64,000 bases of DNA from a virus (IMGVR_UViG_3300029914_000004); one strand, 5' to 3'. Counted from the first letter of the stretch, positions 3,089-51,586 are shown. Numbers and translations: made by a program. Notes: generated by a model not told the origin, from the letters alone.

Positions 3089-3118
3089 GTTGTTAATTTT
3101 AAAGACTATATTTTCTTA

Positions 3119-3147
3119 TTGACAGTTGAATTTATTTAGGATATGCT
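3119..3147 (+). promoter_or_regulatory. second copy of the family promoter (TTGACA-N17-TATGCT)
   Basis: Same 5' T-rich element and spacing; ATG 6 nt downstream. Confidence 0.5.
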
Positions 3148-3153
3148 TTATAT

Positions 3154-3330
3154 ATGACATTGAAAGATAAACTCGAAAAGTATATTGATTCATTGCTAAC
3201 TGAAGAATGCTTTGATCCAATTAGTTATTCCAGTGATGCTTATTACAAGAGATGTGAAATAAAAGCAGAAGTGTTAGAAGATGTAATTTATTGTCTGAAA
3301 GAGATTCTGAAGGAGAGCAATGAAAATTAA
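3154..3330 (+). CDS. small hypothetical protein (58 aa)
   Basis: Leaderless-style ATG behind the family promoter; MTLKDKLEKYIDSLL...; below the ORF-track cutoff. Confidence 0.4.
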   Translation: MTLKDKLEKYIDSLLTEECFDPISYSSDAYYKRCEIKAEVLEDVIYCLKEILKESNEN

Positions 3331-15016: not shown

Positions 15017-16294
15017 ATGAAAAATACTAATCTAGATATTAAATGTATTTTCTGTGGCAAAACTAGGGCCGAAAGTTCCAAAATTCTCGTGAGTGGAGAA
15101 TTTTCAATTTGTGATAAATGTGTGTTACTTTTCAATGGTCTTTTAGAAAATAGTAAACCTTCAGAAAAAAAAGCTAAAGAGAAAGAAATTAAGCAAGAAT
15201 CTGAATTAATATCTGAGGAAATTATTCCTCAATTAAATTCCATTGAAATTAAAAAATTTCTTGATAAGAATGTTATTGGGCAAGAAGAAGCAAAAATTGC
15301 ATTGAGCGTTAGTATAGTAAATCACTATAAAAGAATGCTATATGAAACAACTAATTATACACAATTAGACAAAAGTAATTTAATTATCACTGGACCGAGC
15401 GGAAGTGGAAAATCTCTTCTCATTAAAACAATTTCTAAATTTTTAAATGTTCCCTTCGTATCAATAGATGCTACTACATTGACCGAAGCTGGTTATATTG
15501 GAGAAAATGTAGACACTATCATTTCTCGGCTTCTTGCTAATGCAGATGGTGATATTGAAGCTGCTCAACAAGGAATTGTTTTTATTGATGAAATAGATAA
15601 AATTGCCACTGGAAAAACTAGAAGTAGCACAAGCGACAAACATGTATCTGGAGTTCAAGCTGCATTATTAAAAATGGTAGAAGGATCTATTGTAAGAATT
15701 CCATCGCCTTCAATTAAAAAATCATTTATTCCCCAATTAGTCGAAGTTGATACAACAAATATATTGTTCATTTGCGGCGGGGCATTTGAGGGATTAAATG
15801 AAATAGTTATTAATAGATTGAAAAAGAAATCAGGAATGGGGTTTACTGATGCTCCTATAAATAATAAAACTTTAGAAACAGAATATTCTACAGAAGATTT
15901 TATTGAATATGGAATAATTCCTGAATTTATTGGAAGATTTCCATTACATACATATACTACTGCATTGAGTACTGAAGAATTAATTAAAGTTTTAACAGAT
16001 TTAGACAATAATATGCTTTTTCAATATAAATTTTATTTTGAAATTGATGATATTGATATAGAATTTACTGATGAATTTATTGCCAAATTAGCCGCAAAAG
16101 CAAAAATGAATAAAACTGGAGTTCGTGGCCTTAAAGGATTGTGTGATTCAATAATGTCAGATCATTTATTTTTACTTCCTGAATATAAAAAACGTGGAAT
16201 TTTTAAATTAATATTTGACGAAAGTTGTATAGATAAAAAATCTATACCCAAATTTGAATTCACTACATTCAAAGAAAAAGTAAAAACTTCTTGA
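15017..16294 (+). CDS. clpX: ClpX-like AAA+ unfoldase
   Basis: N-terminal C4 zinc-binding domain CIFCGK...ICDKCV; Walker A ITGPSGSGKSLL; Walker B VFIDEIDKI; ClpX-like region GYIGE.V; about 425 aa. Confidence 0.8.
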   Translation: MKNTNLDIKCIFCGKTRAESSKILVSGEFSICDKCVLLFNGLLENSKPSEKKAKEKEIKQESELISEEIIPQLNSIEIKKFLDKNVIGQEEAKIALSVSIVNHYKRMLYETTNYTQLDKSNLIITGPSGSGKSLLIKTISKFLNVPFVSIDATTLTEAGYIGENVDTIISRLLANADGDIEAAQQGIVFIDEIDKIATGKTRSSTSDKHVSGVQAALLKMVEGSIVRIPSPSIKKSFIPQLVEVDTTNILFICGGAFEGLNEIVINRLKKKSGMGFTDAPINNKTLETEYSTEDFIEYGIIPEFIGRFPLHTYTTALSTEELIKVLTDLDNNMLFQYKFYFEIDDIDIEFTDEFIAKLAAKAKMNKTGVRGLKGLCDSIMSDHLFLLPEYKKRGIFKLIFDESCIDKKSIPKFEFTTFKEKVKTS

Positions 16295-16354: not shown

Positions 16355-16657
16355 ATGACAGTAAATACTTTGAAAAAGGTAAAAATTAATATTGATGTAA
16401 AAGAACCAACTCTATATCAGGTAGTTTATTACAATGACGAAATCACTCCTGCTGTTTTTGTTGCAGAAACATTAATCCAAATTTTCAATTATGAAATTGA
16501 AGATGCTGTTGCATTAACTACAGTTATTAATGATTCTGGGTCAGGTATTGCTGTGAGCGGAATATCAAAAGAATTAGCCACTCATCTGAAGGACCTAGTG
16601 TTGGTATCTGCGCAAGTTGCAAAATACCCACTCAAAGTAGAAGTAAAAGCGAAATAA
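16355..16657 (+). CDS. clpS: ClpS-like Clp protease adaptor
   Basis: 100 aa; YQVVYYNDEITPAVFVAETLIQIFNYEIEDAVALTTVINDSGSGIAVSG fits the ClpS core pattern Y.V.L.NDD.TPMEFV..VL...F......A..LML.VH..G.G..G. Confidence 0.7.
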   Translation: MTVNTLKKVKINIDVKEPTLYQVVYYNDEITPAVFVAETLIQIFNYEIEDAVALTTVINDSGSGIAVSGISKELATHLKDLVLVSAQVAKYPLKVEVKAK

Positions 16658-17479: not shown

Positions 17480-18181
17480 ATGGATGAAAAAGCACAACTA
17501 GCTGCTGTTCAACAAAATGGTTATGCAATTCAATACATCGACAAGCCAAGCGAAGCTGTGCAACTGGCTGCTGTTCAACAAAATGGTTGTGCAATTGAAT
17601 ACATCAGCAAGCCAAGCGAAGCTGTGCAACTGGCTGCTGTTCAACAAAATGGTTGTGCAATTGAATACATCAGCAAGCCAAGCAAAGCTGTGCAACTAGC
17701 TGCTGTTCAACAAGATGGTTGGGCAATTGAATACATCAGAAATCCAAGCGAAGCTGTGCAATTGGCTGCTGTTCAACAAGATGGTTGGGCAATTGAATAC
17801 ATCGACAATCCAAGCGAAGCTGTGCAAATGGCTGCTATTCAACAAAATGGTTGGGCAATTGAATACATCGACAATCCAAGCGAAGCTGTGCAAATGGCTG
17901 CTATTCAACAAAATGGTCGTGCAATTGAATACATCAGCAAGCCAAGCGAAGCTGTGCAAATGGCTGCTGTTCAACAAGATGGTTGTGCAATTAAATACAT
18001 CGACAAACCAAGCGAAGCTGTGCAAATGGCTGCTGTTCAACAAAATAGTGCGGTAATTCAATACATCGACAAGCCAAGCGAAGCTGTGCAACTGGCTGCT
18101 GTTCAAGAAAATAGTGCGGTAATTCAATTCATAAAAAATCCAACAATTAATGTCAAATTAGTGGCTAAATTGCTATCTTAA
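17480..18181 (+). CDS. DUF4116-like 20-aa tandem-repeat protein (about 11 repeats)
   Basis: Eleven near-identical 60-nt (20-aa) units PSEAVQLAAVQQNGxAIEYI(S/D)K; C-terminus INVKLVAKLLS. Confidence 0.7.
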   Translation: MDEKAQLAAVQQNGYAIQYIDKPSEAVQLAAVQQNGCAIEYISKPSEAVQLAAVQQNGCAIEYISKPSKAVQLAAVQQDGWAIEYIRNPSEAVQLAAVQQDGWAIEYIDNPSEAVQMAAIQQNGWAIEYIDNPSEAVQMAAIQQNGRAIEYISKPSEAVQMAAVQQDGCAIKYIDKPSEAVQMAAVQQNSAVIQYIDKPSEAVQLAAVQENSAVIQFIKNPTINVKLVAKLLS

Positions 18182-20049: not shown

Positions 20050-21015
20050 ATGGCACACACTCGAAAATTACTTTTGATCCAAGGAGAATCAGGATCTGGA
20101 AAATCAACCTTTGCTAAAAAATATGTCGAGGATCATCCCAATTATATTAGAATAAATCGTGATGATTTACGCATCGAATTGGCTGATGAACCAAATGCCC
20201 CAAAAGGCGGAAAATTTGAACGCTTTGTTTCTTTGGTTGAAAAAAGCAGAGTTGATAAAGCTTTAAAGGAAAATAAATCAGTAATATTAGATAATACTCA
20301 TTTAAATTCAAACACTGTCGATGGATGGCGTAATTTCGCTCGTCATAAAGCAGAATTTGATATTTATCGAATGCAAACTCCAATGGAAGAGTGTATTTTG
20401 CGTGATTCAAAAAGAATTGGCAAATCACATGTGGGAACGGCTGTAATTCATCGTCAATTTCTTATGTCTGGTAGATTGCCCATTGATCTTTCAAAGAAAA
20501 TAGTGTTGTCTGATGTGGATGGAACTTTGATGGATTGCCATGGAATCCGCAGCCCATATGATGAAAGCAAAGTGTTGTTAGATAAACCTTTTCAAAATAT
20601 CATCAATGAAGTTAATAAATATCATGATGCTGGAAATACTGTTATTATTGTTTCTGGTCGGCATAGCACTTGCGGAGATGATACCATCACTTCACTTACT
20701 AAACATGGTGTAAAATTTGATTTTATTTTTATGCGCCACATGTGGGATAATAATCACGATTATATCGTGAAACAACAAATTTTGGACCAATTACTTAATG
20801 TTGTCCCAAAAGAGCAAATTATTAAAATATGGGATGACCGTCCACAAGTTGTAAAACAAGTGTGGCTCAAAAATAATTTACCAATTCAACCAGTTTTTAA
20901 AAATCAATTAATTCCTATCAATGAATGGACTACTGTTCATGATAAGAATTGCAAATTCATTGCAACCAATAGATTTGGTCGATGCCCTGATTGTGAAGCA
21001 TTGGAGGATTTTTAA
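20050..21015 (+). CDS. polynucleotide 5'-kinase/3'-phosphatase (T4 Pnk/PseT-like)
   Basis: N-terminal P-loop LLIQGESGSGKST and C-terminal HAD phosphatase motif VLSDVDGTL, in the same domain order as T4 Pnk. Confidence 0.65.
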   Translation: MAHTRKLLLIQGESGSGKSTFAKKYVEDHPNYIRINRDDLRIELADEPNAPKGGKFERFVSLVEKSRVDKALKENKSVILDNTHLNSNTVDGWRNFARHKAEFDIYRMQTPMEECILRDSKRIGKSHVGTAVIHRQFLMSGRLPIDLSKKIVLSDVDGTLMDCHGIRSPYDESKVLLDKPFQNIINEVNKYHDAGNTVIIVSGRHSTCGDDTITSLTKHGVKFDFIFMRHMWDNNHDYIVKQQILDQLLNVVPKEQIIKIWDDRPQVVKQVWLKNNLPIQPVFKNQLIPINEWTTVHDKNCKFIATNRFGRCPDCEALEDF

Positions 21016-21321
21016 ATGGAAGGAAACGCAGTGGTTCCTTGCCCAAATTGCAAATTTATGCTTAATGTAGAAGAAGATAAACTTGCAAAATCATATGGGA
21101 ACATTCTAATGGATGATTTTTTGGCTAAAGAAGCAAAAATCAATGTAGACCGTCGTGGGGTACTGGATAGTTCTTTGTCATTAACCTCAGAAGTGAATTT
21201 TAATTATGATAAATTTAAAATAATCATTACTGCTCATTGCGGCAGATGTAAATATGACTACCGCTTCAATCACGAAGAAAATATGAAAGATTTGATCTTA
21301 ATACAAAAATTGGCGAAATAA
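21016..21321 (+). CDS. zinc-ribbon protein
   Basis: CPNC...CGRC Cys pairs. Confidence 0.4.
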   Translation: MEGNAVVPCPNCKFMLNVEEDKLAKSYGNILMDDFLAKEAKINVDRRGVLDSSLSLTSEVNFNYDKFKIIITAHCGRCKYDYRFNHEENMKDLILIQKLAK

Positions 21322-21322
21322 A

Positions 21323-21580
21323 ATGGCAAAATTTGTTGTAGATTTATGGCTAGATGGATATGATTCTGAAGAAGAAATGATCGTGGCTTGTAAAGAATTC
21401 ATATATGAATCACTTAATATGACTGCTAGTTCTGTAAAAGTTGCAGATTTTTATCAATATACAAAAACAGCATGTCCTGCTTGTCTTGCCAATGATCATT
21501 CCCAGCATGATACTAGTGTCTATAAATTAGGTTGTCAAGATCAAACTACAGAAAAACCATGCGAATGCATGGTAGAATAA
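21323..21580 (+). CDS. hypothetical Cys-containing protein
   Basis: 85-aa ORF; ATGA overlap. Confidence 0.4.
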   Translation: MAKFVVDLWLDGYDSEEEMIVACKEFIYESLNMTASSVKVADFYQYTKTACPACLANDHSQHDTSVYKLGCQDQTTEKPCECMVE

Positions 21581-21592
21581 GAGGATATTATT

Positions 21593-22693
21593 ATGGCTTT
21601 GTGGCGAACTTTTGCTTGTAAAATTCAATTGCTTCCACATCCAAACGCAGATAGAATGGAAATTGCTCGTTGCAATTTCAATCAACTTGTGGTTGCTAAA
21701 GGAAATTATCAAGACGGTGATGTTATTGTCTTCGCACCAGAACGAGCAATTTTGCCTGATTCTTTGAAAGGCGAATATGTAAATTCTGAAACTGGAATCA
21801 GTTATCTTACTGGATCAGAGAAAAATAGAGTCAAAGCTATCAAACTGAGAGGAGAACCATCAGACGGAATTTCCCTTCCTATTGAATGGGTATTGGAGCA
21901 AGTTCCTGAATGGAATTCTGTCAAAGATATTCCTTTGGATATTGACATTTCAGAAAAACTTGGTATTTCAAAGTATGAACCTCCAATTCCTTATAATATG
22001 AGCGGAATTGTAAAATCTGTCGATACTTTAAATTTTGCACCGAAAGTCGCTCATCACGATGTTGAACAATTTCGTTTGTTCGCTGATGAATTTGATAAAA
22101 ATGAAGCTGTAATTTGCAGCGAAAAGTTGCACGGAACGCAAATCAATGTCTTTTTCTCTAAAACTGGAGAAATTGGAGTGTCTAGCAAAGGATTCAATTC
22201 CAGAGATTTGATCATTGAACAGGATGCAAAGAATCTCTACTGGCAAGCACTGGAAAATTCTGGTCTAATTAATTTTGTTAAATGCGAAATTCTTGAGTCA
22301 AATGCTCCAGAACTATACAAATCAGATGTTCAATTGGTTGGAGAAGTAATTCCTTGCCAAAAGAATTTTACATATGGTCAAACCAAACCAATTCTGAAGC
22401 TATTTCGTTTTATTGTAAATGGCAAGGAATATTCAGTTCTTGATCTTAACAGAATTTATGGAAAACAGTTCTTGAAAGATCATTGGGTGCCAATTCTTTA
22501 TCACGGAAAATTTGATCCTGAAATATTTGCAAAACTATCTTCTGGAAATGAAACTGTCTCTGGAAAAGGTTTGCACATCAAAGAAGGCATTGTTATTGCT
22601 CCAGAAATTCCGCGAGTAGCGCGAAGAGGATTTCTCCTTCTTTTAAAATGGCTAAATAAGAATTATAAACCAACAGATGAGGATTTTTCTTAA
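21593..22693 (+). CDS. RNA ligase with an N-terminal OB-like domain plus a nucleotidyltransferase domain (Rnl5/DraRnl-NgrRnl-like)
   Basis: Motif I KxHG (SEKLHGTQ) around residue 180, preceded by a roughly 110-aa domain, as in the Deinococcus and Naegleria ligases. Confidence 0.5.
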   Translation: MALWRTFACKIQLLPHPNADRMEIARCNFNQLVVAKGNYQDGDVIVFAPERAILPDSLKGEYVNSETGISYLTGSEKNRVKAIKLRGEPSDGISLPIEWVLEQVPEWNSVKDIPLDIDISEKLGISKYEPPIPYNMSGIVKSVDTLNFAPKVAHHDVEQFRLFADEFDKNEAVICSEKLHGTQINVFFSKTGEIGVSSKGFNSRDLIIEQDAKNLYWQALENSGLINFVKCEILESNAPELYKSDVQLVGEVIPCQKNFTYGQTKPILKLFRFIVNGKEYSVLDLNRIYGKQFLKDHWVPILYHGKFDPEIFAKLSSGNETVSGKGLHIKEGIVIAPEIPRVARRGFLLLLKWLNKNYKPTDEDFS

Positions 22694-23055
22694 TGTTTAA
22701 TATTTGTGAAGACGATTTGACCAATTCAAATTTATTAACTTTAAATTATACTAGAAGTGGAAAAATTGCATGTGCAATTCGTCAACTGTTTAACTGGTAT
22801 TGCCATATTCAAAATAAGGAATATAATCTTCCTTATAATGATGGGTATATCAACTATATACATGCTGATAAAAATTGGATTAAAGTTGATGGACTTATTA
22901 GTGGAAATGAATATCGATGGAATATTCCGATCCCATATAGAAATGAAATGAATATCCCTACTAAATGGTTATTTCAGGAAAACTGGAAAGAATTAATTGA
23001 ACAACAAATTAAACGAGATAAAAATGAATATCTCATAAAAAAATTAAGTGAATAA
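22693..23055 (+). CDS. EKLSE-family small protein
   Basis: C-terminus ENWKELIEQQIKRDKNEYLIKKLSE. Confidence 0.45.
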   Translation: MFNICEDDLTNSNLLTLNYTRSGKIACAIRQLFNWYCHIQNKEYNLPYNDGYINYIHADKNWIKVDGLISGNEYRWNIPIPYRNEMNIPTKWLFQENWKELIEQQIKRDKNEYLIKKLSE

Positions 23056-23279
23056 TGGAGAGTTTTATGATTTTATTTTTAGTAATTTTATATCTAATTT
23101 CTACAATTGAAGCCACGTATTTTTTCAGTAAATCTTGGTTATTCTATAACGATTTATATTTGGGAAATTTGATTTTTTGTTTTATACTGGGACTTTTACC
23201 TTGTGCTTTCGTTCCAGCGTTTATATTATATTTAATAACATATTCCAAGTTGCCAGCCCTTTTAATAAAGAAGAGATAA
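23055..23279 (+). CDS. small membrane protein
   Basis: 74 aa with two hydrophobic helices. Confidence 0.4.
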   Translation: MESFMILFLVILYLISTIEATYFFSKSWLFYNDLYLGNLIFCFILGLLPCAFVPAFILYLITYSKLPALLIKKR

Positions 23280-23602
23280 TGATTCCAGACGAATTAACGA
23301 GAGCATTACAATTGGTGGGGAAAGATCATCAATTAATTAATAACGAAGTTTCTATAATTTATAAAAAATTTCAAGAACTCAAATTGAAAATTTTGGGATA
23401 TTCATGGAACAATAAATGTGTGTCTATTTTTGATGTAATTGAATTAGATTATAATAATAAATTATTTTTCATTAATAAAAAACGTGGATGTTATTTATCA
23501 TTTCCAATTCGTTGGCTCAGCGATCCAAATTGGGAAAAAGAAGCAATAGAAGGGATCAAAATTGAGAGAGATTATGCTCTAATTGACAAACTACAATCAT
23601 AA
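23279..23602 (+). CDS. EKLSE-family small protein (variant C-terminus IDKLQS)
   Basis: ATG after AAGAGATA; NWEKEAIEGIKIERDYALIDKLQS; in the frame of ORF 23177..23602. Confidence 0.4.
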   Translation: MIPDELTRALQLVGKDHQLINNEVSIIYKKFQELKLKILGYSWNNKCVSIFDVIELDYNNKLFFINKKRGCYLSFPIRWLSDPNWEKEAIEGIKIERDYALIDKLQS

Positions 23603-23665
23603 GAAAACAAATGATTTATTTTGACTTTTAGGTTTATATTTGCTGTTCTAGATTAGAGGATCAAA

Positions 23666-24763
23666 ATGATTGTTTTAAATAAACTGCTGAATGTCGAGAC
23701 TTTGGAGCAATTAATTGCTGATGGATATATTTCTCGAAAATTTCACTCCAAATTTCCTTTGGCAATTTTGAACTATTCTCATAAAGCCAACTTTGATCCA
23801 AACTTGATATGGGGCAATGAGTTAAATTTCTGCCGAGGATTGATTTACAATACTGAAACTTTAGAAATTGTTAGTCGTCCATTTTCCAAATTCTGGAACA
23901 TTAATGATACTCGCCATCCTGAAACTATGGAAGAGAATCTTCCCAACGATATTCCTCTAATCACATCAAAGATGGATGGGAGCATGGGAGTATTTTATCA
24001 CTGGGATGGTGTAAATTATATTGCAACTCGTGGAAGTTTTGAGTCTGACCAATCAAATTGGGCCAATGAATGGCTTCATAAAAATTATCCTAATTTGATT
24101 CTTCCAAAAAATTATACTCTGCTATCAGAAATCCTTTTCAAATCTAATAGGATAGTCGTAGAATATGATTTTGAAGGACTTGTAATTTTGGGAGCAGTTC
24201 ATAAAGAAACTGGCCAGGAATTATCACGTCAAAATCTTGTAGATTATTGCGATATTACTAATCTAAACATCGTTCAAGACCACACCAAGTCTTTATCTGA
24301 GTGTGTTTCTGAAGACTTACCCAATTTTGAGGGATATGTCTTAACTTATTCAAATGGGTTAAAAGTTAAAATCAAAGAATTGACTTATTGCACCCTCCAT
24401 AAGATTATTACAGGTCTCAATCCTAAAGCAATTTGGGAATTGAAGCGTGATGGAAAAAATGAAACTATTGATAGTTGGTTGAATGATAAAATAATGCCGA
24501 TTGAATTCAAGAATTGGCTAAACAAGTGGGATGATCAATTATCCAATGATTTCTACAAAATATTGATGACGGCTGAATCTATTTTTAATAAGCAACCAAA
24601 AACTAATTCTCGTAAGGAAATTGCAACATATTTCTTACAAGGAGAAAACAAAGAGTATTCATCTATTTTATTCGGATTATTGGATGGCAAAGATGTTTCT
24701 CAAACAATTTGGAGAATGATTGAGCCAAAATTCAATGACGTATTTAGAGAAGATGGAGAGTAA
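23666..24763 (+). CDS. RNA ligase 1-like (T4 RnlA family)
   Basis: Motif I K-x-D-G (ITSKMDGSMGVF) around residue 100; 365 aa, similar in size to T4 Rnl1. Confidence 0.55.
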   Translation: MIVLNKLLNVETLEQLIADGYISRKFHSKFPLAILNYSHKANFDPNLIWGNELNFCRGLIYNTETLEIVSRPFSKFWNINDTRHPETMEENLPNDIPLITSKMDGSMGVFYHWDGVNYIATRGSFESDQSNWANEWLHKNYPNLILPKNYTLLSEILFKSNRIVVEYDFEGLVILGAVHKETGQELSRQNLVDYCDITNLNIVQDHTKSLSECVSEDLPNFEGYVLTYSNGLKVKIKELTYCTLHKIITGLNPKAIWELKRDGKNETIDSWLNDKIMPIEFKNWLNKWDDQLSNDFYKILMTAESIFNKQPKTNSRKEIATYFLQGENKEYSSILFGLLDGKDVSQTIWRMIEPKFNDVFREDGE

Positions 24764-27940: not shown

Positions 27941-28474
27941 ATGAATGAAAAAGTACAAATGGCTGCTGTTCGACAATATGGTCGTGCAATTAAATACATC
28001 GACAAGCTAAGCGAAGCTGTGCAACTGGCTGTTGTTCGACAATATGGTCGTGCAATTAAATACATCGACAAGCCAAGCGAAGCTGTGCAACTGGCTGCTG
28101 TTCAACAAAATGGTTGGGTAATTCAATACATCAGCAAGCCAAGCGAAGCTGTGCAACTGGCTGCTGTTCAACGAAATAGTTGTGCAATTGAATACATCGG
28201 AAATCCAAGCGAAGCTGTGCAACTGGCTGCTGTTCGACAATATTGTTATGCAATTCAATACATCGACAAGCCAAGCGAAGCTGTGCAACTGGCTGCTGTT
28301 CAACAAGATTGTTATGCAATTCAATACATCGACAAGCCAAGCGAAGCTGTGCAACTGGCTGCTGTTCAACAAGATGGTCGTGCAATTAAATACATCGACA
28401 AACCAAGCGAAGCTGTGCAAATGGCTGCTGTTCAACAATATGGTCGTCCAATTAAATACATAAGGAAAAGATAA
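27941..28474 (+). CDS. DUF4116-like tandem-repeat protein (about 8 repeats)
   Basis: Repeats as in 17480..18181; C-terminus diverges (YIRKR). Confidence 0.7.
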   Translation: MNEKVQMAAVRQYGRAIKYIDKLSEAVQLAVVRQYGRAIKYIDKPSEAVQLAAVQQNGWVIQYISKPSEAVQLAAVQRNSCAIEYIGNPSEAVQLAAVRQYCYAIQYIDKPSEAVQLAAVQQDCYAIQYIDKPSEAVQLAAVQQDGRAIKYIDKPSEAVQMAAVQQYGRPIKYIRKR

Positions 28475-32963: not shown

Positions 32964-32994
32964 CATATTCAAAACAAAGCACTTATTTTCTTAT

Positions 32995-33023
32995 TGACAA
33001 ATCACCTAAAGTTTAGTATACTT
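32995..33023 (+). promoter_or_regulatory. family promoter with a conventional leader (TTGACA-N17-TATACT)
   Basis: Followed by a 22-nt leader with a GGAG RBS. Confidence 0.55.
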
Positions 33024-33041
33024 ATTTTAGTGGAGAAAACT

Positions 33042-34367
33042 ATGACCAAGATGAATCAAAATGCGCTGGCAGTAATGGAGACTCTTGAAAATGCAGGGTA
33101 CGATGCCTTTTTATGCGGGGGCGCGGTCAGAGATTTGCTTCTTGGCTTGACTCCACACGATTGGGATGTAACTACTTCTGCCCCTGCTGAAGTCGTGGAT
33201 TCTCTCTTTCCCAATACAAAGATGGTGGGAGAAAATTTTGGCGTTTCTCTTGTTGAATACAATGGAGAAACATTTGAAGTTGCGCGATTCCGTCGTGATG
33301 GAGATTATAGCGATAATCGCCGCCCAGATTTTGTGGACTTCACTTTGTCTGCTGAAGAAGATGTTGCTAGAAGAGATTTTACCATGAATGCTTTGCTCAT
33401 GGATCGAAACGGAAATGTTTACGATTTTGTTGGTGGACAGACTGATTTGCAGAATGGTTTGCTCCGGGCTGTTGGAAATCCTGAAACTCGTTTCACTGAA
33501 GATGCATTGCGTTTACTTCGAGCTGTCCGTTTCGCAGCGCGATTTAATCTTCGATTTGATCGGGAAACTCATGAAGCAATAGAAAAGAGGGCTTTTTCTG
33601 TTGAAACTCTTCCGCCTGATCGTGTTAGCGGAGAACTTGTCAAGATGCTGACTGGTGGCAATGTCAATGTTGCTTTCAAGCTTATGGACAACACTGGATT
33701 GCTTCAGCATGTTTTGCCTGAAGTCAATGCAATGCGTGGTGTGGATCAAAATAGCAAATTTCATCCAGAAGGAGATGTTTTTCAGCATACTCTGCTCATG
33801 CTGTCTAAGCTTCCTGCGAATTGCAGCGTCACTCTTGCCTTGTCTGTCCTTCTTCATGATGTGGCAAAACCAACAACTGCTGTTCGTAACGTAAAGACTG
33901 GTGAAAATCAGTTTTTTGGCCACGAAACAGTCGGTGCTGAAATGGCTGCAAAGATGCTTCGCAATCTTCGATTTTCAAATGAAGTTGTAGATGCTGTTAG
34001 CAGCCTTGTTTCTCAGCACATGAAGTTTTTCAACGTAACGAAGATGAATGATTCCAAGTTGAAGAGATTCGTTCGTCAGGAAAATTTCAGCGAATTGCTT
34101 GAACTGAATCGTCTTGATAGTCTTTGCAGTAATGGTGATCTCACTGATTTCAATTTTGCTGTTGATTTTCTTGCAAGTGTCACTGAAGAGTCTTTGAATC
34201 CTGTTCGTCTGCTTACTGGAAACGATTTGCAGGCAATGGGGTTGAAGCCTGGCCCGATGTTTAAGACTTTGCTTACTGCACTCGAAAATGCGCAGCTTGA
34301 CGGGCGTGTAACAACTCGTGACGAAGCTGTATTTTTCGTTGAATCTTTGACTGGCGGAGACAGGTAA
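33042..34367 (+). CDS. cca: CCA-adding enzyme (tRNA nucleotidyltransferase, head domain plus HD domain)
   Basis: Pol-beta nucleotidyltransferase motif LCGGAVRDLLLG..DWDV; RRDFTMNAL; C-terminal HD domain LLHDVAKP; about 45% GC. Confidence 0.8.
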   Translation: MTKMNQNALAVMETLENAGYDAFLCGGAVRDLLLGLTPHDWDVTTSAPAEVVDSLFPNTKMVGENFGVSLVEYNGETFEVARFRRDGDYSDNRRPDFVDFTLSAEEDVARRDFTMNALLMDRNGNVYDFVGGQTDLQNGLLRAVGNPETRFTEDALRLLRAVRFAARFNLRFDRETHEAIEKRAFSVETLPPDRVSGELVKMLTGGNVNVAFKLMDNTGLLQHVLPEVNAMRGVDQNSKFHPEGDVFQHTLLMLSKLPANCSVTLALSVLLHDVAKPTTAVRNVKTGENQFFGHETVGAEMAAKMLRNLRFSNEVVDAVSSLVSQHMKFFNVTKMNDSKLKRFVRQENFSELLELNRLDSLCSNGDLTDFNFAVDFLASVTEESLNPVRLLTGNDLQAMGLKPGPMFKTLLTALENAQLDGRVTTRDEAVFFVESLTGGDR

Positions 34368-36681: not shown

Positions 36682-37310
36682 GTAACTTTGATAAACTGAA
36701 GAAACAATTAGATAAAGCAGAGGAAAATGCTTCTATTAAACGTGAAGAATTTTATGGTTTAATCACAGAAGTATTGTCTGTATTTAATTTGAATAATGAT
36801 CATTACGACGATGTATGGTCAAATGAAACTCATGTAATTGTGAACTATAGCTGGAGGGCTGCTGGATGTAACTGCTCAGATTCTATTACTCTCCCAAAGT
36901 CAATTTTTGATGCTGCTGATCCTGTTGCCGTCGCAAAAATTTATAAAAATGATCTTGATAATAGCAAGAAAAAGTCTGAACGTTCAATAAAATTAGAAGA
37001 ATTTAATGCTTTAAAGAAAGAACTTGGTGTAAAAATAATGAAAGCAACTCATCCAATACAACCATTAGTTAGCGACAAAGTTGGAACAACCAGATTTAAA
37101 GAAAATGCTATTGTTAGCTATCTTATTGACATTGCAACACAAAAAGGCATAGCAGACATGAATTCTCTGGCTATTATGAATTTCTCAAATGAAGATCGTG
37201 AGCAATTTGCTCAACTGATTGGATATTCATTGGACGGATTTGGTGAATTATCATATGTAAGTGATGAGACATATGATTTGGCTGCAAAGCAAAAAGTTTT
37301 TAAGGAATAA
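36678..37310 (+). CDS. hypothetical protein
   Basis: 210-aa ORF. Confidence 0.5.
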   Translation: MSNFDKLKKQLDKAEENASIKREEFYGLITEVLSVFNLNNDHYDDVWSNETHVIVNYSWRAAGCNCSDSITLPKSIFDAADPVAVAKIYKNDLDNSKKKSERSIKLEEFNALKKELGVKIMKATHPIQPLVSDKVGTTRFKENAIVSYLIDIATQKGIADMNSLAIMNFSNEDREQFAQLIGYSLDGFGELSYVSDETYDLAAKQKVFKE

Positions 37311-37329
37311 ATACAAGTGTTAAATAACG

Positions 37330-37700
37330 CTCGTGAAAGGACAGTATAAAATCAACGGACAACACACCGGTTCAACTCCGGTCAGGTCCACCAAATTTAT
37401 GATTCAATGTTTTATTTGGGCCTGTCATGGTATCGATTGACGTGTGGTTGGACTACTGACGAGCCGACTGGTGTGGCCATCGTAAATGGACACATAAACA
37501 ATAATTGCTACCTCTGGTATCAATGGCAGTGCAAAGATTTTCACGTATTCTGTGAATCTCCGCAACACTGAGCTAGTAAACGCCTAATAAGCTTTACTCC
37601 GAGGAGTTGTTCCGTCCTTGTAAAAGAAACGGAACTATAAAATTTCCTTTAACAACTCAGTAGATCACTGCATATAGGACAATTTTATTTTGCATCTAGA
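37330..37700 (+). ncRNA. ssrA: candidate circularly permuted (two-piece) tmRNA-like RNA
   Basis: T-arm plus 3' acceptor plus CCA (ACCGGTTCAACTCCGGT-CAGGTCC-A-CCA; GGTTCAACTCC is identical to the E. coli tmRNA T-arm) with no 5' acceptor upstream; perfectly complementary 5' acceptor GGGCCTG 14 nt downstream, followed by ATCGATTGACG (compare tmRNA GGATTCGACG); 420-nt ORF-free, GC-richer, hairpin-rich region; possible tag frame ending AAC GCC TAA TAA. Confidence 0.4.
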
Positions 37701-37741
37701 AAATAATGTAGATATTTCATTCTTATAGATAAGTTATCATC

Positions 37742-37924
37742 ATGAAAAAATTAATATATAAAATTCGTTTTGATCTTGGTTTCCTTTATCCATATGTTGT
37801 ATATAACTTTTTAGAAGGAACCACTATGGTTGATGACTTTCCTGAGCATGTGGAACATATAGAATTTTTTAAAACTGAGCAAGAAGCCAAAGATTTTATT
37901 CTAATAGAAAAGTTGGCAGCATGA
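37742..37924 (+). CDS. small-protein array gene 1 (C-terminus EQEAKDFILIEKLAA)
   Basis: Conserved roughly 45-nt 3' block; ATGA overlap with the next gene. Confidence 0.55.
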   Translation: MKKLIYKIRFDLGFLYPYVVYNFLEGTTMVDDFPEHVEHIEFFKTEQEAKDFILIEKLAA

Positions 37925-38097
37925 AAATAATATATACAATCGTCCCTCCATTTGAAGAAGAAATGAAATGGATGGTTATGAAAAGATGGATATCATCACA
38001 GGATGCATGTGTAGATTATAAAATACCAAGATTTTACAGATTTGAATCTGAGCAAGAAGCTGAAAATTTCATTTTATTAGAAAAGTTAGCATCATGA
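37921..38097 (+). CDS. small-protein array gene 2 (C-terminus SEQEAENFILLEKLAS)
   Basis: 58 aa; ATGA-coupled; below the ORF-track cutoff. Confidence 0.5.
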   Translation: MKIIYTIVPPFEEEMKWMVMKRWISSQDACVDYKIPRFYRFESEQEAENFILLEKLAS

Positions 38098-38285
38098 AAT
38101 ACTCATATCGTATAGATCATATTAAATATAGAACAATCTTTCAATGGTCAGTTAGAAAATATTCAAATTATTCTCATCCAAACAATAACAATTCGTGGGC
38201 GTGGAATTTATTATCAGAAAGTTTTTATTTTGAAACTGAGCAAGAAGCCAAAGATTTTGTTCTAATAGAGAAATTATCATCATGA
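38094..38285 (+). CDS. small-protein array gene 3 (C-terminus TEQEAKDFVLIEKLSS)
   Basis: ATGA-coupled. Confidence 0.55.
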   Translation: MKYSYRIDHIKYRTIFQWSVRKYSNYSHPNNNNSWAWNLLSESFYFETEQEAKDFVLIEKLSS

Positions 38286-38455
38286 AAATAACATATGAGC
38301 TACTTGAATTAGATAATGGATGGGGAGTAGCTGCGCGGCAGCAAAAAACTCCGCAAGATGCATTTCTTCGTCAAGAGGCAAGAACAAATATGTTTTGGTT
38401 TTCAAATAGAAAAGAAGCAGAAGATTTCATTTTAATAGAAAAGTTGGCAGAATGA
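38282..38455 (+). CDS. small-protein array gene 4 (C-terminus NRKEAEDFILIEKLAE)
   Basis: 57 aa; ATGA-coupled. Confidence 0.5.
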   Translation: MKITYELLELDNGWGVAARQQKTPQDAFLRQEARTNMFWFSNRKEAEDFILIEKLAE

Positions 38456-38637
38456 AAAAATATACAATCATCCCTCCACAGGAATACAATGATAAATGGA
38501 TAGTCCGGGAAAGACTATATGTTGGAGATACTGAATGTGTGATTAATACCATTGAACTTAAAATTCCTAAAGTTTATATATTTGATTCTAAGAAAGAAGC
38601 AGAAGATTTCATTTTAATAGAAAAATTATCATCATGA
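38452..38637 (+). CDS. small-protein array gene 5 (C-terminus SKKEAEDFILIEKLSS)
   Basis: ATGA-coupled. Confidence 0.55.
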   Translation: MKKYTIIPPQEYNDKWIVRERLYVGDTECVINTIELKIPKVYIFDSKKEAEDFILIEKLSS

Positions 38638-38774
38638 AACGAAAATATAATCTTTATCATCTTACAAAATGGTATGTAGAAGTATGGGCTGAAAGTTTAT
38701 GCCCTCTTTTATATTCATTTGATTCTAAGAAAGAAGCAGAAGATTTCATTTTAATAGAAAAATTATCATCATGA
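38634..38774 (+). CDS. small-protein array gene 6 (C-terminus SKKEAEDFILIEKLSS)
   Basis: 46 aa; its 3' 45 nt are identical to gene 5. Confidence 0.45.
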   Translation: MKRKYNLYHLTKWYVEVWAESLCPLLYSFDSKKEAEDFILIEKLSS

Positions 38775-38798
38775 AACTAAGAAAGAGGCAGAAAAATT

Positions 38799-39056
38799 AT
38801 GTCAATGAAAATTTTATGCACGCCAACAAAATCAGCGAGTGATTTTGGAGAATATAATCCAATCAGAAAATGGAAAATTGAACCAAAAATTTATGAACCA
38901 GAAAAATTTCTTTACAAAACATGGTTTGAATTAAATAGCGAGGATACTAAAAGAAACTATGGTGTTTCATTCTTACTGGGAACATTATTTACAGCAGAAT
39001 TCACCTCCAAAAAAGAAGCTGAAATTTTTTCAGTAATAGATAAACTCATAAGTTGA
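38799..39056 (+). CDS. small-protein array gene 7 (C-terminus SKKEAEIFSVIDKLIS)
   Basis: 85 aa; overlaps the start of the next gene. Confidence 0.55.
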   Translation: MSMKILCTPTKSASDFGEYNPIRKWKIEPKIYEPEKFLYKTWFELNSEDTKRNYGVSFLLGTLFTAEFTSKKEAEIFSVIDKLIS

Positions 39057-40483
39057 TAAATACTAATATGAGATTCAATGAACTATTAACGGAATACAAT
39101 TCAAGTCCATCAAATTTGATAAATTTAGCATCTCAAATAGATGCTAGGGTTGGAATTGAATTTGAAATGATAGTTCCAGGAATTTTGAAGAAACTTGTAA
39201 AAGAACGCGATAGTGATGCTGATGTTTATTGTACATCAATTGATCAAATTGTAGATTTCTTTGATCATGATCAAATAAATTCGCCTCATGATTTGCGATA
39301 TTTACGAACTAGCCTTGAAACAAATTTTAGAGAATATCTTGAGAATAAAGCTGACAAAAACTGGGATAAAGAAGAAGATATTGTTCTTCATAAATATGCT
39401 GAAGAACAAACTGGAGAAGACGAAGAATGCGAGGAGTTATATAACGATCTTCTTCGTGGAAAAAGCAGAGAGTTTTTTAATATTAAAGAAGATTGGATTC
39501 AAGAGTGGATTCTAGATAATAAATATTCTCTGGAATCTGATTGGTTGGACGATGCTGGCTATGTAACTATGGAAGAAGTAAACAGAGAACATGATATTGA
39601 CTGGCCATACTTTCTTGAAGTTAATTCAGGAGGAGATTTGGATTTAGATGATTTGGCTGATGAATTTGAATATGTAATTCAAAATAAAGTATCAGTCAAT
39701 AATGAATATCATAATCAAACCAAAAGATTGGATAGTTGGTATCTAGAGCCTGATGAAAGTATTATTCCCAGCGGGAATGATTCAACTGGCTTGGAATTTG
39801 TATCTCCTCCAATGCCATTTTTAGAAATGGTAGTTTCTATTAACAAAATTATTTCATGGGCAACGAGCAATAACTATTATACTAATAAATCTACTGGACT
39901 GCATGTTAACGTAAGTATAAAAAATGGTAAATTGCTCAACATAGATTATGTCAAATTAGTTCTATTGCTTGGTGATAATTATATTCTAGATAAATTTGGC
40001 AGAGGAGCAAATAGCTACTGTAGACCAGCATTGGGAAAGATTAATGCTGCGATTAAGCTTCATCCAGAAATGATTAGAAATTATTTAATGCAAATGAAAC
40101 AACAATTAAATAATTTTTCTATGAAACTTATAACAACTACAGACAAGTACACCAGCATCAATTTAAAAAGCGGTTATGTTGAATTTAGAAGTCCAGGCGG
40201 AAATTGGTTAAAAGAAGATATTACGGTGCTTCAATCAACCATTGCCAGATTTATTGTTGCATTAGATGCTGCATGTGATCCCACTAAATATCAAAAAGAA
40301 TACGCAACAAAATTATATAAATTAATTCAAGGATCTACACCTACTGATGAAAACTCTGATACTATTTCATATTTTTCTCAGTACGCTGCTGGAAAATTAA
40401 GCAAAGAAGAATTAGTATCAATCATAAAACAAATACAATCTAATAGAAATTATACCAAATATAAACCTACAATAGAAAGTTGA
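39053..40483 (+). CDS. hypothetical acidic protein
   Basis: 476-aa ORF, D/E-rich. Confidence 0.55.
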   Translation: MINTNMRFNELLTEYNSSPSNLINLASQIDARVGIEFEMIVPGILKKLVKERDSDADVYCTSIDQIVDFFDHDQINSPHDLRYLRTSLETNFREYLENKADKNWDKEEDIVLHKYAEEQTGEDEECEELYNDLLRGKSREFFNIKEDWIQEWILDNKYSLESDWLDDAGYVTMEEVNREHDIDWPYFLEVNSGGDLDLDDLADEFEYVIQNKVSVNNEYHNQTKRLDSWYLEPDESIIPSGNDSTGLEFVSPPMPFLEMVVSINKIISWATSNNYYTNKSTGLHVNVSIKNGKLLNIDYVKLVLLLGDNYILDKFGRGANSYCRPALGKINAAIKLHPEMIRNYLMQMKQQLNNFSMKLITTTDKYTSINLKSGYVEFRSPGGNWLKEDITVLQSTIARFIVALDAACDPTKYQKEYATKLYKLIQGSTPTDENSDTISYFSQYAAGKLSKEELVSIIKQIQSNRNYTKYKPTIES

Positions 40484-41064
40484 AATACATGTCGCAAAAA
40501 TTATCATCCACTAAAATCCAATATATGGATTTAGAAATGCAATGTTGGGAAGATGGAAATTGCCCCATAGATCAAACAAATCATATAATTCAAATTGGAT
40601 TAGTTGAAGTTGATGCAACTGACCTAGTGATAATTCGTCAAGAAAATTATTATATCAGACCAAAAAATAAAAATTTTGATATTAGTAATTATTGTACAAA
40701 TCTTACTGGTATTACCAAAGAAAAAATTATTTCAGAAGGACGAAGATTTTCGGATGTAATGCAGACGATAAAAAATGAATTCAGCCCCAGGAATAAAGTA
40801 TCATATTCTTGGGGATCAGACAATGATGCAATCATAAGTCATTGTAAAGATTATAACTGTTATAATCCATGGCAAAATACAGGAATTTGGGATTTAGGAA
40901 TTATATTTCAAAGTACATTCTTATTGAAACGAAAACTTGCTTTGGGAAAAGCATTGGAATTTTTAAATGTGCCTTTTAATGGCACTCCTCATAATGCTGT
41001 TTGGGATGCTGCTTCATTGGCTGATTTGCACATAGAAATGATGAAGAGATTGAGAGAGAAATAA
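40480..41064 (+). CDS. DEDDh 3'-5' exonuclease (DnaQ/RNase T-like)
   Basis: Motif I YMDLEM and motif III HNAVWDAASLADL (H-x4-D). Confidence 0.55.
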   Translation: MKYMSQKLSSTKIQYMDLEMQCWEDGNCPIDQTNHIIQIGLVEVDATDLVIIRQENYYIRPKNKNFDISNYCTNLTGITKEKIISEGRRFSDVMQTIKNEFSPRNKVSYSWGSDNDAIISHCKDYNCYNPWQNTGIWDLGIIFQSTFLLKRKLALGKALEFLNVPFNGTPHNAVWDAASLADLHIEMMKRLREK

Positions 41065-42557: not shown

Positions 42558-42563
42558 TTATAT

Positions 42564-43046
42564 ATGAATGAAAAAGCACAACTGGCTGCTGTTCAACAAA
42601 ATGGTTATGCAATTCAATACATCGACAAGCCAAGCGAAGCTATGCAAATGGCTGCTGTTCAACAAAATGGTTGTGCAATTGAATACATCAGCAAGCCAAG
42701 CGAAGCTGTGCAAATGGCTGCTGTTCAACAAAATGGTCGGGCAATTTACTACATCGACAAGCCAAGCGAAGCTGTGCAACTGGCTGCTGTTCAACAAAAT
42801 GGTTATGCAATTGAATACATCGACAAGCCAAGCGAAGCTGTGCAAATGGCTGCTGTTCAACAATATGGTCGTGCAATTGAATACATCAGCAAGCCAAGCG
42901 AAGCTGTGCAAATGGCTGCTGTTCAAGAAGATAGTTGGGCAATTTGCTACATCGACAAGCCAAGCGAAACTGTGCAAATGGCTGCTGTTCAACGAAATTA
43001 TTGGGCAATTCAATTCATAAAAAGCCAACAATTAATGTCAAATTAA
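42564..43046 (+). CDS. DUF4116-like tandem-repeat protein (about 7 repeats; frameshifted C-terminus)
   Basis: An A-run one nt shorter than in sister copies converts ...KPTINVKLMAKLLS into ...SQQLMSN*. Confidence 0.65.
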   Translation: MNEKAQLAAVQQNGYAIQYIDKPSEAMQMAAVQQNGCAIEYISKPSEAVQMAAVQQNGRAIYYIDKPSEAVQLAAVQQNGYAIEYIDKPSEAVQMAAVQQYGRAIEYISKPSEAVQMAAVQEDSWAICYIDKPSETVQMAAVQRNYWAIQFIKSQQLMSN

Positions 43047-44186: not shown

Positions 44187-44192
44187 TTATAT

Positions 44193-44828
44193 ATGGATGA
44201 AAAAGCACAACTGGCTGCTGTTCGACAAGATGGTCGTGCAATTAAATACATCGACAAGCCAAGCGAAGCTGTGCAAATGGCTGCTGTTCGACAAGATGGT
44301 TGGGCAATTAAATACATCAGCAAGCCAAGCGAAGCTGTGCAAATGGCTGCTGTTCAACAATATGGTCGTGCAATTTACTACATCGACAAGCCAAGCGAAG
44401 CTGTGCAAATGGCTGCTGTTCAACAATATGGTCGTGCAATTTACTACATCGACAAGCCAAGCGAAGCTGTGCAACTGGCTGCTGTTCAACAAACTAGTCG
44501 TGCAATTCAATACATCGACAAGCCAAGCGAAGCTGTGCAAATGGCTGCTGTTCAACAATATGGTTGTGCAATTTACTACATCGACAAGCCAAGCGAAGCT
44601 GTGCAACTGGCTGCTGTTCAACAAGATGGTCGTGCAATTCAACACATCGACAAACCAAGCGAAGCTGTGCAACTGGCTGCTGTTCAAGAAGATGGTTGTG
44701 CAATTAAATACATCAGCAAGCCAAGCGAAGCTGTGCAAATGGCTGCTGTTCAACAAAATGGTTGTGCAATTGAATGCATAAAAAAGCCAACAATTAATGT
44801 CAAATTAATGGCTAAATTGCTGTCTTAA
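44193..44828 (+). CDS. DUF4116-like tandem-repeat protein (about 10 repeats)
   Basis: Repeats plus canonical C-terminus. Confidence 0.7.
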   Translation: MDEKAQLAAVRQDGRAIKYIDKPSEAVQMAAVRQDGWAIKYISKPSEAVQMAAVQQYGRAIYYIDKPSEAVQMAAVQQYGRAIYYIDKPSEAVQLAAVQQTSRAIQYIDKPSEAVQMAAVQQYGCAIYYIDKPSEAVQLAAVQQDGRAIQHIDKPSEAVQLAAVQEDGCAIKYISKPSEAVQMAAVQQNGCAIECIKKPTINVKLMAKLLS

Positions 44829-51040: not shown

Positions 51041-51586
51041 ATGATTACTTCATCAAAAATGATAGATATCGAAACACTTTCTACTCAACCAAATGCTGCA
51101 ATTCTTTCTATTTCAGCAGTTGCTTTTGATCCATTTGAAATAACCACTGACTTTTCTTTAAATCCTAAATTTGATGTGTTAATTGATTTAGAAAGTCAAC
51201 CAAATAGAGAAATTTCTGAAGAGACACTTGAATGGTGGAGCAAGCAATCTCCTTTAACAAGAGATAAAATATTTGGAGATGAAAATAGAATTTCTCTTAA
51301 AGAAGCACTTGAACAATTAACTAAATTTGTTTGGAATACGACCAATAAGATTTGGGTTCAAGGAGTTTCTTTGGATATACCTGTTCTTGACCATGCATTT
51401 CATGAACAAAATATATCAGTTCCATGGGGATATCATCAAATTAGAGATTCTCGTACTTTACTTGATCTAGTATTTGTCGAGCAGCCATCAGTGTCTCATG
51501 ATAGTATTGATGATTGCTATCGTCAAATCATAGGAGTACAAAGAGCATTACAAAAACTTGGAATTACACAATTTGTAAGGAAATAA
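51041..51586 (+). CDS. DEDDh 3'-5' exonuclease
   Basis: Motif I MIDIETL; motif III SHDSIDD. Confidence 0.5.
   Translation: MITSSKMIDIETLSTQPNAAILSISAVAFDPFEITTDFSLNPKFDVLIDLESQPNREISEETLEWWSKQSPLTRDKIFGDENRISLKEALEQLTKFVWNTTNKIWVQGVSLDIPVLDHAFHEQNISVPWGYHQIRDSRTLLDLVFVEQPSVSHDSIDDCYRQIIGVQRALQKLGITQFVRK

Follow-up and report, generated by a model that had tools for sequence, protein, structure and literature searches.

A complete circularly permuted tmRNA gene in an AT-rich phage

The window analysed here is a stretch of viral DNA of 64,000 nucleotides (IMGVR_UViG_3300029914_000004). Between its open reading frames (ORFs) there is a gap of 431 nucleotides, at positions 37311-37741, which contains a gene for transfer-messenger RNA (tmRNA; gene ssrA). 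The gene is complete and circularly permuted, and it is of an already known kind. It had been proposed as a candidate permuted tmRNA-like RNA from the sequence of the window, together with two checks, a run of ARAGORN in permuted mode and a covariance-model search, and both checks were positive. ARAGORN called a permuted tmRNA at 37297-37678 with the tag peptide ATSGINGSAKIFTYSVNLRNTELVNA followed by two stops. The Rfam family RF04321 (tmRNA_permuted) matched positions 37329-37534 over its full length (model positions 1-213 of 213) with 73.1 bits against a gathering score of 47 and E=4e-12, where the E-value refers to the whole window compared with 4227 Rfam families. A local scan of the window with the same model gave 75.5 bits. 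Given the Rfam E-value and the independent ARAGORN call, the match is more than chance. No other Rfam family reached threshold for the locus in the Rfam scan.

The gap has a GC content of about 0.43, compared with 0.26-0.34 in the flanks. The original prediction described the region as GC-richer, ORF-free and full of hairpins. The first part of this description holds. The second has to be corrected, as there is a single mechanical ORF of 54 amino acids (37407-37571). The third is not supported by plain minimum free energy folding, which did not separate the region from shuffles (z=-0.95); such a weak signal is expected, since the RNA is pseudoknotted. A region of 449 nucleotides is 100% identical across six independent assemblies (JGI, ENA, Logan). 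This excludes an assembly chimera or host contamination; it also means that the assemblies provide no microdiversity for the analysis of covariation.

The order of the two pieces is that of a permuted tmRNA, the acceptor piece preceding the coding piece (Table 1). The T-arm, the 3' acceptor strand, the discriminator base and CCA form one stretch, ACCGGTTCAACTCCGGT CAGGTCC A CCA (37366-37393). An ordinary tRNA cannot form here because the nearest upstream GGRCCTG on the plus strand lies at 35947, in agreement with the original prediction, which had found no upstream partner. The sole plus-strand partner of the acceptor strand is GGGCCTG, located 3' of the CCA and followed, as had also been noticed, by a tmRNA-like stretch, TCATGGTATCGATTGACG. 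The D-loop analogue of the coding piece is UCAUGGUAUCGA. Two further details of the original description had to be corrected. The spacer between the pieces is not 14 but 24 nucleotides long, and the pairing of GGGCCTG, said to be perfect, consists of seven pairs, one of which, G37420:U37387, is G-U. This is no flaw, as it corresponds to G3:U70, the alanine identity pair. The statement that the T-arm GGTTCAACTCC is that of E. coli tmRNA is correct: the 3' end of E. coli ssrA contains it, and a 32-nucleotide query matched 5422 of the 5426 E. coli genomes under 'ssrA'.

The rest of the RNA is also that of a tmRNA. Along with the permuted order and the tRNA-Ala-like domain, it has P2 helices, the pseudoknot PK1 upstream of an alanine resume codon, and an open tag frame with its stops inside helix 5. 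A second pseudoknot, PK2, is of the beta-tmRNA type and is covered by a local match to positions 253-304 of the beta_tmRNA model. The pseudoknot and tag-frame architecture, whose lack had been named in advance as grounds for abandoning the prediction, is thus present, and it is backed by homologues. A further helix, 37299-37307 with 37645-37653, could close the structure; it was noticed on visual inspection alone, and we make no claim for it.

These data bear on the possibility that the locus is a remnant of a tRNA 3' half or of an ssrA 3' end used as an attachment (att) site, or else a chimeric assembly with host DNA. Indeed, tmRNA genes are often integration sites, and their fragments occur in prophages (PMC9004378). 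However, both pieces and the whole coding part are present, and no integrase was found among the window ORFs scanned. Further, the same junctions occur in the six independent assemblies, and the composition is intermediate rather than host-like. Hence a remnant or a chimera is extremely improbable.

Table 1. Coordinates of the permuted tmRNA, of related bacterial genes and of other genes in the window. S1 and S2 are the stems of a pseudoknot.
Feature	Position	Strand	Evidence or remark
Acceptor piece: P2 5' strands, T-arm, 3' acceptor strand, A73, encoded CCA	37329-37393	+	RF04321 from model position 1; ARAGORN start 37297
P2a	37329-37333 with 37460-37464	+	
P2b	37342-37346 with 37454-37458	+	
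P2c	37356-37357 with 37441-37442; 37360-37362 with 37437-37439	+	
T-arm: 5-bp stem ACCGG/CCGGU, 7-nucleotide loop UUCAACU	37366-37370 with 37378-37382	+	Rfam alignment, helix coordinates
3' acceptor strand CAGGUCC	37383-37389	+	Partner 37418-37424
Discriminator A73	37390	+	
Encoded CCA	37391-37393	+	
AU-rich intervening segment, 24 nucleotides	37394-37417	+	Aligns to unpaired loop of RF04321 model
Coding piece: 5' acceptor strand, D-loop analogue, P2 3' strands, PK1, tag, helix 5, PK2	37418-37640	+	
5' acceptor strand GGGCCUG	37418-37424	+	
P2c/P2b/P2a 3' strands	37437-37464	+	Pair with 37329-37362, join both pieces
PK1	37465-37495	+	S1 37465-37467 with 37480-37482; S2 37471-37475 with 37491-37495
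Resume codon GCU	37507-37509	+	ARAGORN; Rfam alignment
Tag frame: GCU, 26 codons, stops TAA TAA	37507-37590	+	ARAGORN; homologous tags
Stops TAA TAA	37585-37590	+	In helix 5 loop
Helix 5: GUAAA(C)GC/GCUUUAC	37576-37583 with 37591-37597	+	Window sequence only; both stops in loop
PK2, beta-tmRNA type	37600-37635	+	S1 CGAGG/CCUUG 37600-37604 with 37616-37620
PK2 S2 GUUCCGU/ACGGAAC	37609-37615 with 37629-37635	+	
Acidobacteriaceae permuted ssrA	L054 3094-3492; L076 1083-1476 (-); L112 2820-3217; L121 5232-5625; L148 5931-6325; L087; L116		
ClpX	15017-16294	+	Pfam; alignment to E. coli ClpX
ClpS	16355-16657	+	Pfam
CCA-adding tRNA nucleotidyltransferase	32994-34367	+	Pfam; 44.7% identical to Tunturi_5 gp279
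RNase T-like exonuclease	40480-41064		

Homologues were found both in phages and in bacteria. A distant BLASTN search of a phage collection produced one match, inside the tmRNA, to an unannotated site of Tunturiibacter phage Tunturi_5, a jumbo myovirus of 309 kb that infects a member of the Acidobacteriaceae (PP885688.1, about 157893-158195, minus strand, between gp219 and gp218; 2860-3162, plus strand, in our extract L001). RF04321 scores 86.4 bits at this site, which was missed by ARAGORN and is present neither in the GenBank record nor in the paper describing the phage. A gapped pattern for the permuted tRNA-like domain identified about 35 permuted tmRNAs in IMG/VR contigs and, in a bacterial genome collection, seven permuted tmRNAs in metagenome-assembled genomes of Acidobacteriaceae. 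The latter represent at least seven species-level genomes and have a conserved 28-residue tag, ANKGVFASKANVVSFPTKSVAPA[LF]ALAA. They are chromosomal ssrA genes, since they reside on contigs of up to 1.42 Mb beside GH127, GH92, GH31, LpxA, LpxI and AhpC genes. Their gene context and contig size rule out prophage-borne or mis-binned phage DNA. L112 and L054 have different genes beside ssrA. When IMG/VR was scanned for exact copies of the PK1 block, there were no matches, or chance ones within coding DNA. A clade-specific gapped pattern, applied in one metagenome scan and in the first genome scan, yielded chance matches in GC-rich genes and no intermediate relatives, and no relatives of the upstream 210-amino-acid ORF were found in IMG/VR. 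Gene order could not be used for comparison, because the ORFs flanking the tmRNA in the window and in Tunturi_5 are not homologous.

The helices covary. We aligned seven sequences (the window, Tunturi_5 and five Acidobacteriaceae genes) at 35 pairs in eight helices including PK1. Overall 92.2% of the pairs are formed across the alignment, and 11 pairs change on both sides. None of 500 shuffles reached any of the five measures used, and slid controls had 35-44% pairing with at most three two-sided changes. The tRNA-like domain (acceptor stem and T-arm) is 100% paired in all seven sequences, with compensatory changes; in the T-arm, three of the five pairs have two-sided changes. Pairing reaches 97% in P2a and 100% in the inner P2c, with one and two such changes, respectively. 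P2b is paired at 69%, which is explained by a local alignment shift. PK1 is 100% paired, with a two-sided change from A-U to G-C in S1 and a one-sided change from G-U to G-C in S2. By hand count, 12 pairs differ between the window and L112, and all 12 are still paired in the window. As for PK2, the length of its S2 (7 bp) was reached by 23 of 2000 shuffles. The homologues have different but complementary S2 stems at the same distance from the CCUUGU motif, several of them reached by 0 of 2000 shuffles.

This conservation should be set against the possibility that the phage acquired a host ssrA which has since been released from selection and is decaying as a mere passenger. Such decay would be consistent with a drift of GC content from about 0.61 in the Acidobacteriaceae copies to 0.45, with scores below threshold for the lineage-specific Rfam models, with an atypical C-terminus of the tag and with the absence of conserved synteny with Tunturi_5. 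However, at a divergence of about 40% all helices of the tRNA-like domain, P2 and PK1 are still paired, and the changes are compensatory. G3:U70, A73, CCA and the canonical T-loop are intact, and the tag frame is open in the homologous register and ends with two stops. Moreover, two phages whose relationship is very distant, with only 5-6 window ORFs in common, have both retained the gene. Taken together, this makes a passenger very unlikely.

The tag comprises 26 residues; its C-terminal stretch is …SVNLRNTELVNA, ending with Leu-Val-Asn-Ala. The end of the frame is the one proposed originally, GTA AAC GCC TAA TAA (37576-37590). The other two frames across the region, read by hand, end with RIL and PQH, and of the three only the ARAGORN frame matches the homologues. 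The homologous register is open in the window, in Tunturi_5 (AKNSPVVRGTAKVLSFARKFVPAVSSTRAFAMAA followed by three stops) and in Acidobacteriaceae (28 residues, e.g. ANKGVFASKANVVSFPTKSVAPAFALAA). The core of the tag changes by conservative substitutions, GSAKIFTY in the window, GTAKVLSF in Tunturi_5 and SKANVVSF in the host-type tags. This conserved core suggests that the peptide is produced and that its sequence is important. Long tags recur among phage-borne two-piece tmRNAs: tags of 26-32 residues were observed in seven other phage permuted tmRNAs (L007, L015, L023, L029, L032, L040, L043), e.g. ANADTFEFSGFNFTGNTVRGAANEGRFALAA.

An Ala-Ala end is typical of tmRNA tags, without being a strict requirement of the family. 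In E. coli, the terminal Ala-Ala-COO- is the main determinant for ClpXP (PMC7652416). The tags of the host type in the same clade end with LAA or MAA, so the departure is specific to the lineage of the window. One could suppose, then, that the RNA still rescues ribosomes while its tag has lost the function of a degron, or that it competes with the host tmRNA. Ribosomes would be freed, or host trans-translation blocked, and the products would not be sent to the host ClpXP; for example, truncated phage proteins would be spared, or a tmRNA-dependent host response disabled. There is a precedent for a competitor, as a tmRNA variant of phage DS6A without the coding region was reported to inhibit the endogenous tmRNA (PMC11915505). 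However, the 26-codon frame is intact, the double stop is placed in helix 5 and the core is conserved, which argues for a peptide that is made and whose sequence matters. Besides, parts of ssrA tags other than the terminal Ala-Ala are recognised by other proteases and adaptors, and tags without an Ala-Ala end exist elsewhere, e.g. AEAPKAFAAHA in two of the compared contigs (L009 and L017). We therefore regard a lost degron or a competitor as unlikely.

The original prediction likened the order of the pieces to the permuted ssrA of alpha-proteobacteria and cyanobacteria. The RNA is not of either type: the lineage-specific models fail, and the gene groups with those of Acidobacteriaceae and Tunturi_5. 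Of these models beta_tmRNA came nearest, with two partial matches scoring 39.2 and 13.3 bits where 84 are required; lower-scoring matches to other models of the same clan were left out of that output. The Acidobacteriaceae genes likewise reach the threshold of RF04321 only and of no lineage model. As the BLAST ranking of relatives is dominated by T-arm similarity and hence uninformative, we used core alignment, bootstrap and hidden Markov models (HMMs) instead. The core consists of 166 nucleotides, the acceptor piece and the first 100 nucleotides of the coding piece. Identity to the window in this core amounts to 58-62% for the Acidobacteriaceae genes and 59.8% for Tunturi_5, and it does not exceed 57% for any other sequence. 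The neighbour-joining clade of the window, Tunturi_5 and Acidobacteriaceae is present in 160 of 200 bootstraps, and among about 39 tmRNAs compared the PK1 string GGTGTGGCC is limited to these three. An HMM built from the seven Acidobacteriaceae genes only gives Tunturi_5 84.8 bits and the window 68.5 bits, the two best scores among the non-training sequences, with at most 54.8 bits for all others. An HMM built from bacterial genes of the beta type, those of betaproteobacteria, gives the window 33.2 bits. The features of this unnamed Acidobacteriaceae-type clade are the PK1 block GGUGUGGCC...GGACACA, the 5' P2a block and a tag of 26-34 residues with the core [VI][VLF][ST][FY], and the window has all of them.

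The nearest relatives of the window gene are thus chromosomal tmRNAs of Acidobacteriaceae and the Tunturi_5 tmRNA, which are neither alpha-proteobacterial nor cyanobacterial. In its PK2 motif the window comes closer to the beta type, so that the clade is most suitably treated as one branch within a broad 'beta-like' permuted architecture. The tmRNA database is in line with this view: among 2144 Acidobacteriota genomes it records 5 as 'Permuted (beta)' (PMC11915505, Table S2). The majority of Acidobacteriota possess a tmRNA of standard form. The original prediction also expected a hint of the host if the host uses a two-piece tmRNA; the lineage suggested here is Acidobacteriaceae. Since the clade unites host ssrA with the gene of Tunturi_5, the gene was probably exchanged with the Acidobacteriaceae host lineage, and it has probably drifted since then toward the low GC content of the phage. 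It is conceivable, though quite unlikely, that phages of this kind brought permuted ssrA into one branch of Acidobacteriaceae. The idea that the window phage itself is a close relative of Tunturi_5 was dropped, as homologues of only 5-6 window ORFs exist there; the two phages are only distantly related.

The analysis shows the identity of the gene, its permuted order, the helices with their covariation, the open homologous tag frame and the lineage. We conclude that the complete, circularly permuted ssrA gene in the gap is probably maintained by selection and works in ribosome rescue. Its processing, charging, SmpB partner and the fate of the tagged proteins would follow the established two-piece tmRNAs (Keiler et al. 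2000; Sharkady and Williams 2004, as cited in PMC11915505 and PMC9004378). One precursor would be transcribed from the region. RNase P would cleave it before G37418, and tRNA 3'-end processing would trim it to the encoded CCA at 37393, releasing the 24-nucleotide spacer, which is predicted to be cut out at this stage. The products would be an acceptor piece of about 65 nucleotides or more and a coding piece of about 220-260 nucleotides, held together by the acceptor stem and P2. The host alanyl-tRNA synthetase would charge the RNA with alanine, recognising G3:U70 and A73. With host SmpB and EF-Tu the charged RNA would then enter ribosomes stalled on broken or non-stop messages during infection. 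The alanine on the charged RNA would come first, and translation, resuming on the GCU at 37507, would then add what remains of the 26-residue tag read from this codon and stop at TAA TAA. The ribosome would be recycled and the incomplete protein marked.

Several observations weigh against this conclusion. Neither tblastn with E. coli SmpB nor a Pfam search of 20 mid-sized ORFs detected an SmpB in the window, and so the function would depend on the SmpB of the host. The tag ends with Val-Asn-Ala and not with the Ala-Ala degron typical of tmRNA tags. A consensus scan for promoters and terminators was no better than shuffles and revealed no intrinsic terminator. The 3' end differs with the source, the coding piece being drawn to 37640 here and extended to 37678 by ARAGORN. 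Helix 5 and PK2 are without alignable covariation that would relate them to the 3' domain of Acidobacteriaceae, and the covariation of the other helices rests on three lineages, because the five Acidobacteriaceae rows are mutually close. The GC content of the phage is about 31% and that of the Acidobacteriaceae tmRNA genes about 61%, and the inference of the host is indirect. Finally, expression and processing are argued from analogy.

The tmRNA shares several features with known systems. With the tmRNAs of Acidobacteriaceae it has in common the permuted order, the acceptor stem GGGCC(U/C)G / C(A/G)GGUCC, the start of P2a, UAACGCUCGUGAA.AGACAG, the same PK1 block and a long tag with a homologous core. 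However, those genes are bacterial and chromosomal, have 61% GC and a 28-residue tag ending with ALAA, and their 3' domain, comprising helix 5 and PK2, cannot be aligned with that of the window. The Tunturi_5 tmRNA is phage-borne and belongs to the same clade. It is 88.7% identical to the window over a block of 53 nucleotides formed by PK1 and the segment before the resume codon, and it also has a long tag, with the common core G[ST]AK[IV][FL][ST][YF]; both phages encode a CCA-adding enzyme. Unlike the window, Tunturi_5 has a tag of 34 residues with an AMAA end, three stops, a clear intrinsic terminator, a GC content of 58% and non-homologous flanking genes, and no ClpX, ClpS or SmpB was detected in its complete genome. 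The betaproteobacterial two-piece tmRNA (RF01850), reportedly described by Sharkady and Williams in 2004, has the same succession of acceptor piece, spacer, coding piece, PK1, tag, helix 5 and PK2 with CCUUGU, and its model partially matches the window in the tRNA-like domain and PK2. Nevertheless, the window is below the gathering score of 84 bits, and betaproteobacterial tags are short, e.g. ANDERFALAA.

Two-piece tmRNAs of phages have already been described, and standard tools find the window gene at once. Permuted ssrA genes are known from marine phages, namely OM43 phage Melnitz, pelagimyophages and cyanophages, which have lytic genomes of the myovirus type, with no experimental data on function (PMC9004378). 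Of the 133 unique tmRNAs from phages in the same survey, 53 were called two-piece (PMC9004378), and the tmRNA database contains 79 phage sequences (PMC11915505). Unlike the window gene, the marine two-piece tmRNAs are of alpha-proteobacterial or cyanobacterial lineage, and some of them have a glutamine riboswitch. Huge phages with a tmRNA and SmpB have also been reported (Al-Shayeb et al. 2020, PMC7162821). As in these phages, the window tmRNA accompanies genes for translation and RNA maintenance in a large genome; on the other hand, the window has no detected SmpB, and the parts of that paper considered here do not discuss permuted forms. Four points are new: the gene is linked to an Acidobacteriaceae-type clade, an isolated jumbo phage has a homologue that is not annotated, the end of the tag diverges, and there is a hint of the host. 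The long tag, its Asn-Ala end and the presence of phage ClpX and ClpS in the same window are unusual.

The window tmRNA leaves the picture of trans-translation unchanged. The isolate Tunturi_5 demonstrates that tmRNA genes can escape standard phage annotation, and the window gene ties a little-noticed group of two-piece tmRNAs of Acidobacteriaceae to phages of that group. It also provides a sequence-based hint of the host for an uncultured, very AT-rich phage, probably from soil or bog; a search of the literature for the sample accessions gave no result. Lastly, tags ending with …ALAA in the host, …AMAA in Tunturi_5 and …LVNA in the window, together with a phage ClpX, form a natural test case for the role of phage tmRNAs.

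In several IMG/VR contigs of phages with permuted tmRNAs, one or two amber-suppressor tRNAs with the anticodon CUA (labelled Pyl by ARAGORN) were observed at a distance of about 1 kb or less from the tmRNA (L006 672-1059; L007 4617-4690; L020 3421-3496; L025 11745-12132). Their proximity is a hint that stop-codon recoding and phage tmRNAs are connected.

The phage clpX and clpS genes mentioned in the original prediction are real, as demonstrated by Pfam (Table 1). The proposed manipulation of the trans-translation and degradation axis is another matter. The functional link of the tmRNA to ClpX and ClpS is speculative and amounts to co-occurrence in one window, and the tmRNA does not travel with the Clp genes, since Tunturi_5 lacks both. 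No ClpP was found among 20 mid-sized ORFs of the window searched with Pfam. In the phage ClpX the zinc finger and the GYIG pore-1 loop are retained, as is a ClpP-docking loop, in which MGF replaces IGF. Six ClpX residues have been reported to be critical for the recognition of ssrA (PMC7652416). Relative to E. coli, two of them are kept in the phage protein (Y153, T199), two are changed conservatively (V154I, R228K) and two non-conservatively (V202K, H230S); the lysine at V202 is in pore-2, and KKS replaces the RKH loop. Together with the Asn-Ala end of the tag these substitutions are suggestive, as a lead only. They could mean that a tag ending with ELVNA is a poor substrate for the host ClpX and is read by the phage ClpX, perhaps with ClpS, so that the phage would set the fate of proteins from stalled ribosomes. 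Such a private channel seems to us quite unlikely. Upstream of the phage clpX there is a PP2C phosphatase gene (14044-14778).

Genes of RNA repair and end maintenance are clustered in the window at 20050-24763, 32994-34367, 40480-41064 and 51041-51586. Apart from the CCA-adding enzyme and the RNase T-like exonuclease (Table 1), the window encodes PNKP, Rnl1, Rnl2, a Rv2179c-like 3'-5' exoribonuclease, a clamp loader and ThyX. The clamp loader, Rnl1, Rnl2, PNKP, ThyX and the tRNAs speak for a real phage sequence. Together, the RNA repair genes look like a set for the maintenance of tRNAs and tmRNA. A possible role of the CCA-adding enzyme is to keep CCA intact on the phage tRNAs and on the acceptor piece. 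ARAGORN found four tRNAs in the window, all of them, like the tmRNA, encoding CCA. Two adjoining ones, at 1593-1684 and 1492-1586 on the plus strand (ARAGORN, Rfam), are unusual. One has the Cys anticodon GCA together with the discriminator U73 and an 18-nucleotide variable arm as in Ser, Leu and Tyr tRNAs; the adjoining tRNA-Ser carries AGA, an anticodon unusual in bacteria.

Four paralogues with DUF4116 repeats are encoded at 17480-18181, 27941-28474, 42564-43046 and 44193-44828. In the regions 42558-43046 and 44187-44828, both strands have long ORFs, open in several frames, a pattern suggestive of repetitive DNA.

Directly 3' of the tmRNA there are seven tandem overlapping small ORFs of 46-85 amino acids (37742-39056, plus strand). 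Their N-termini differ, and at the C-terminus they have a common motif, approximately F(E/D)S(E/K)(Q/K)EAE(D/N)FIL(I/L)EKL, followed by AA, AS, SS, AE or IS. The first of them ends with ...EKLAA and resembles a C-terminus of the ssrA type.

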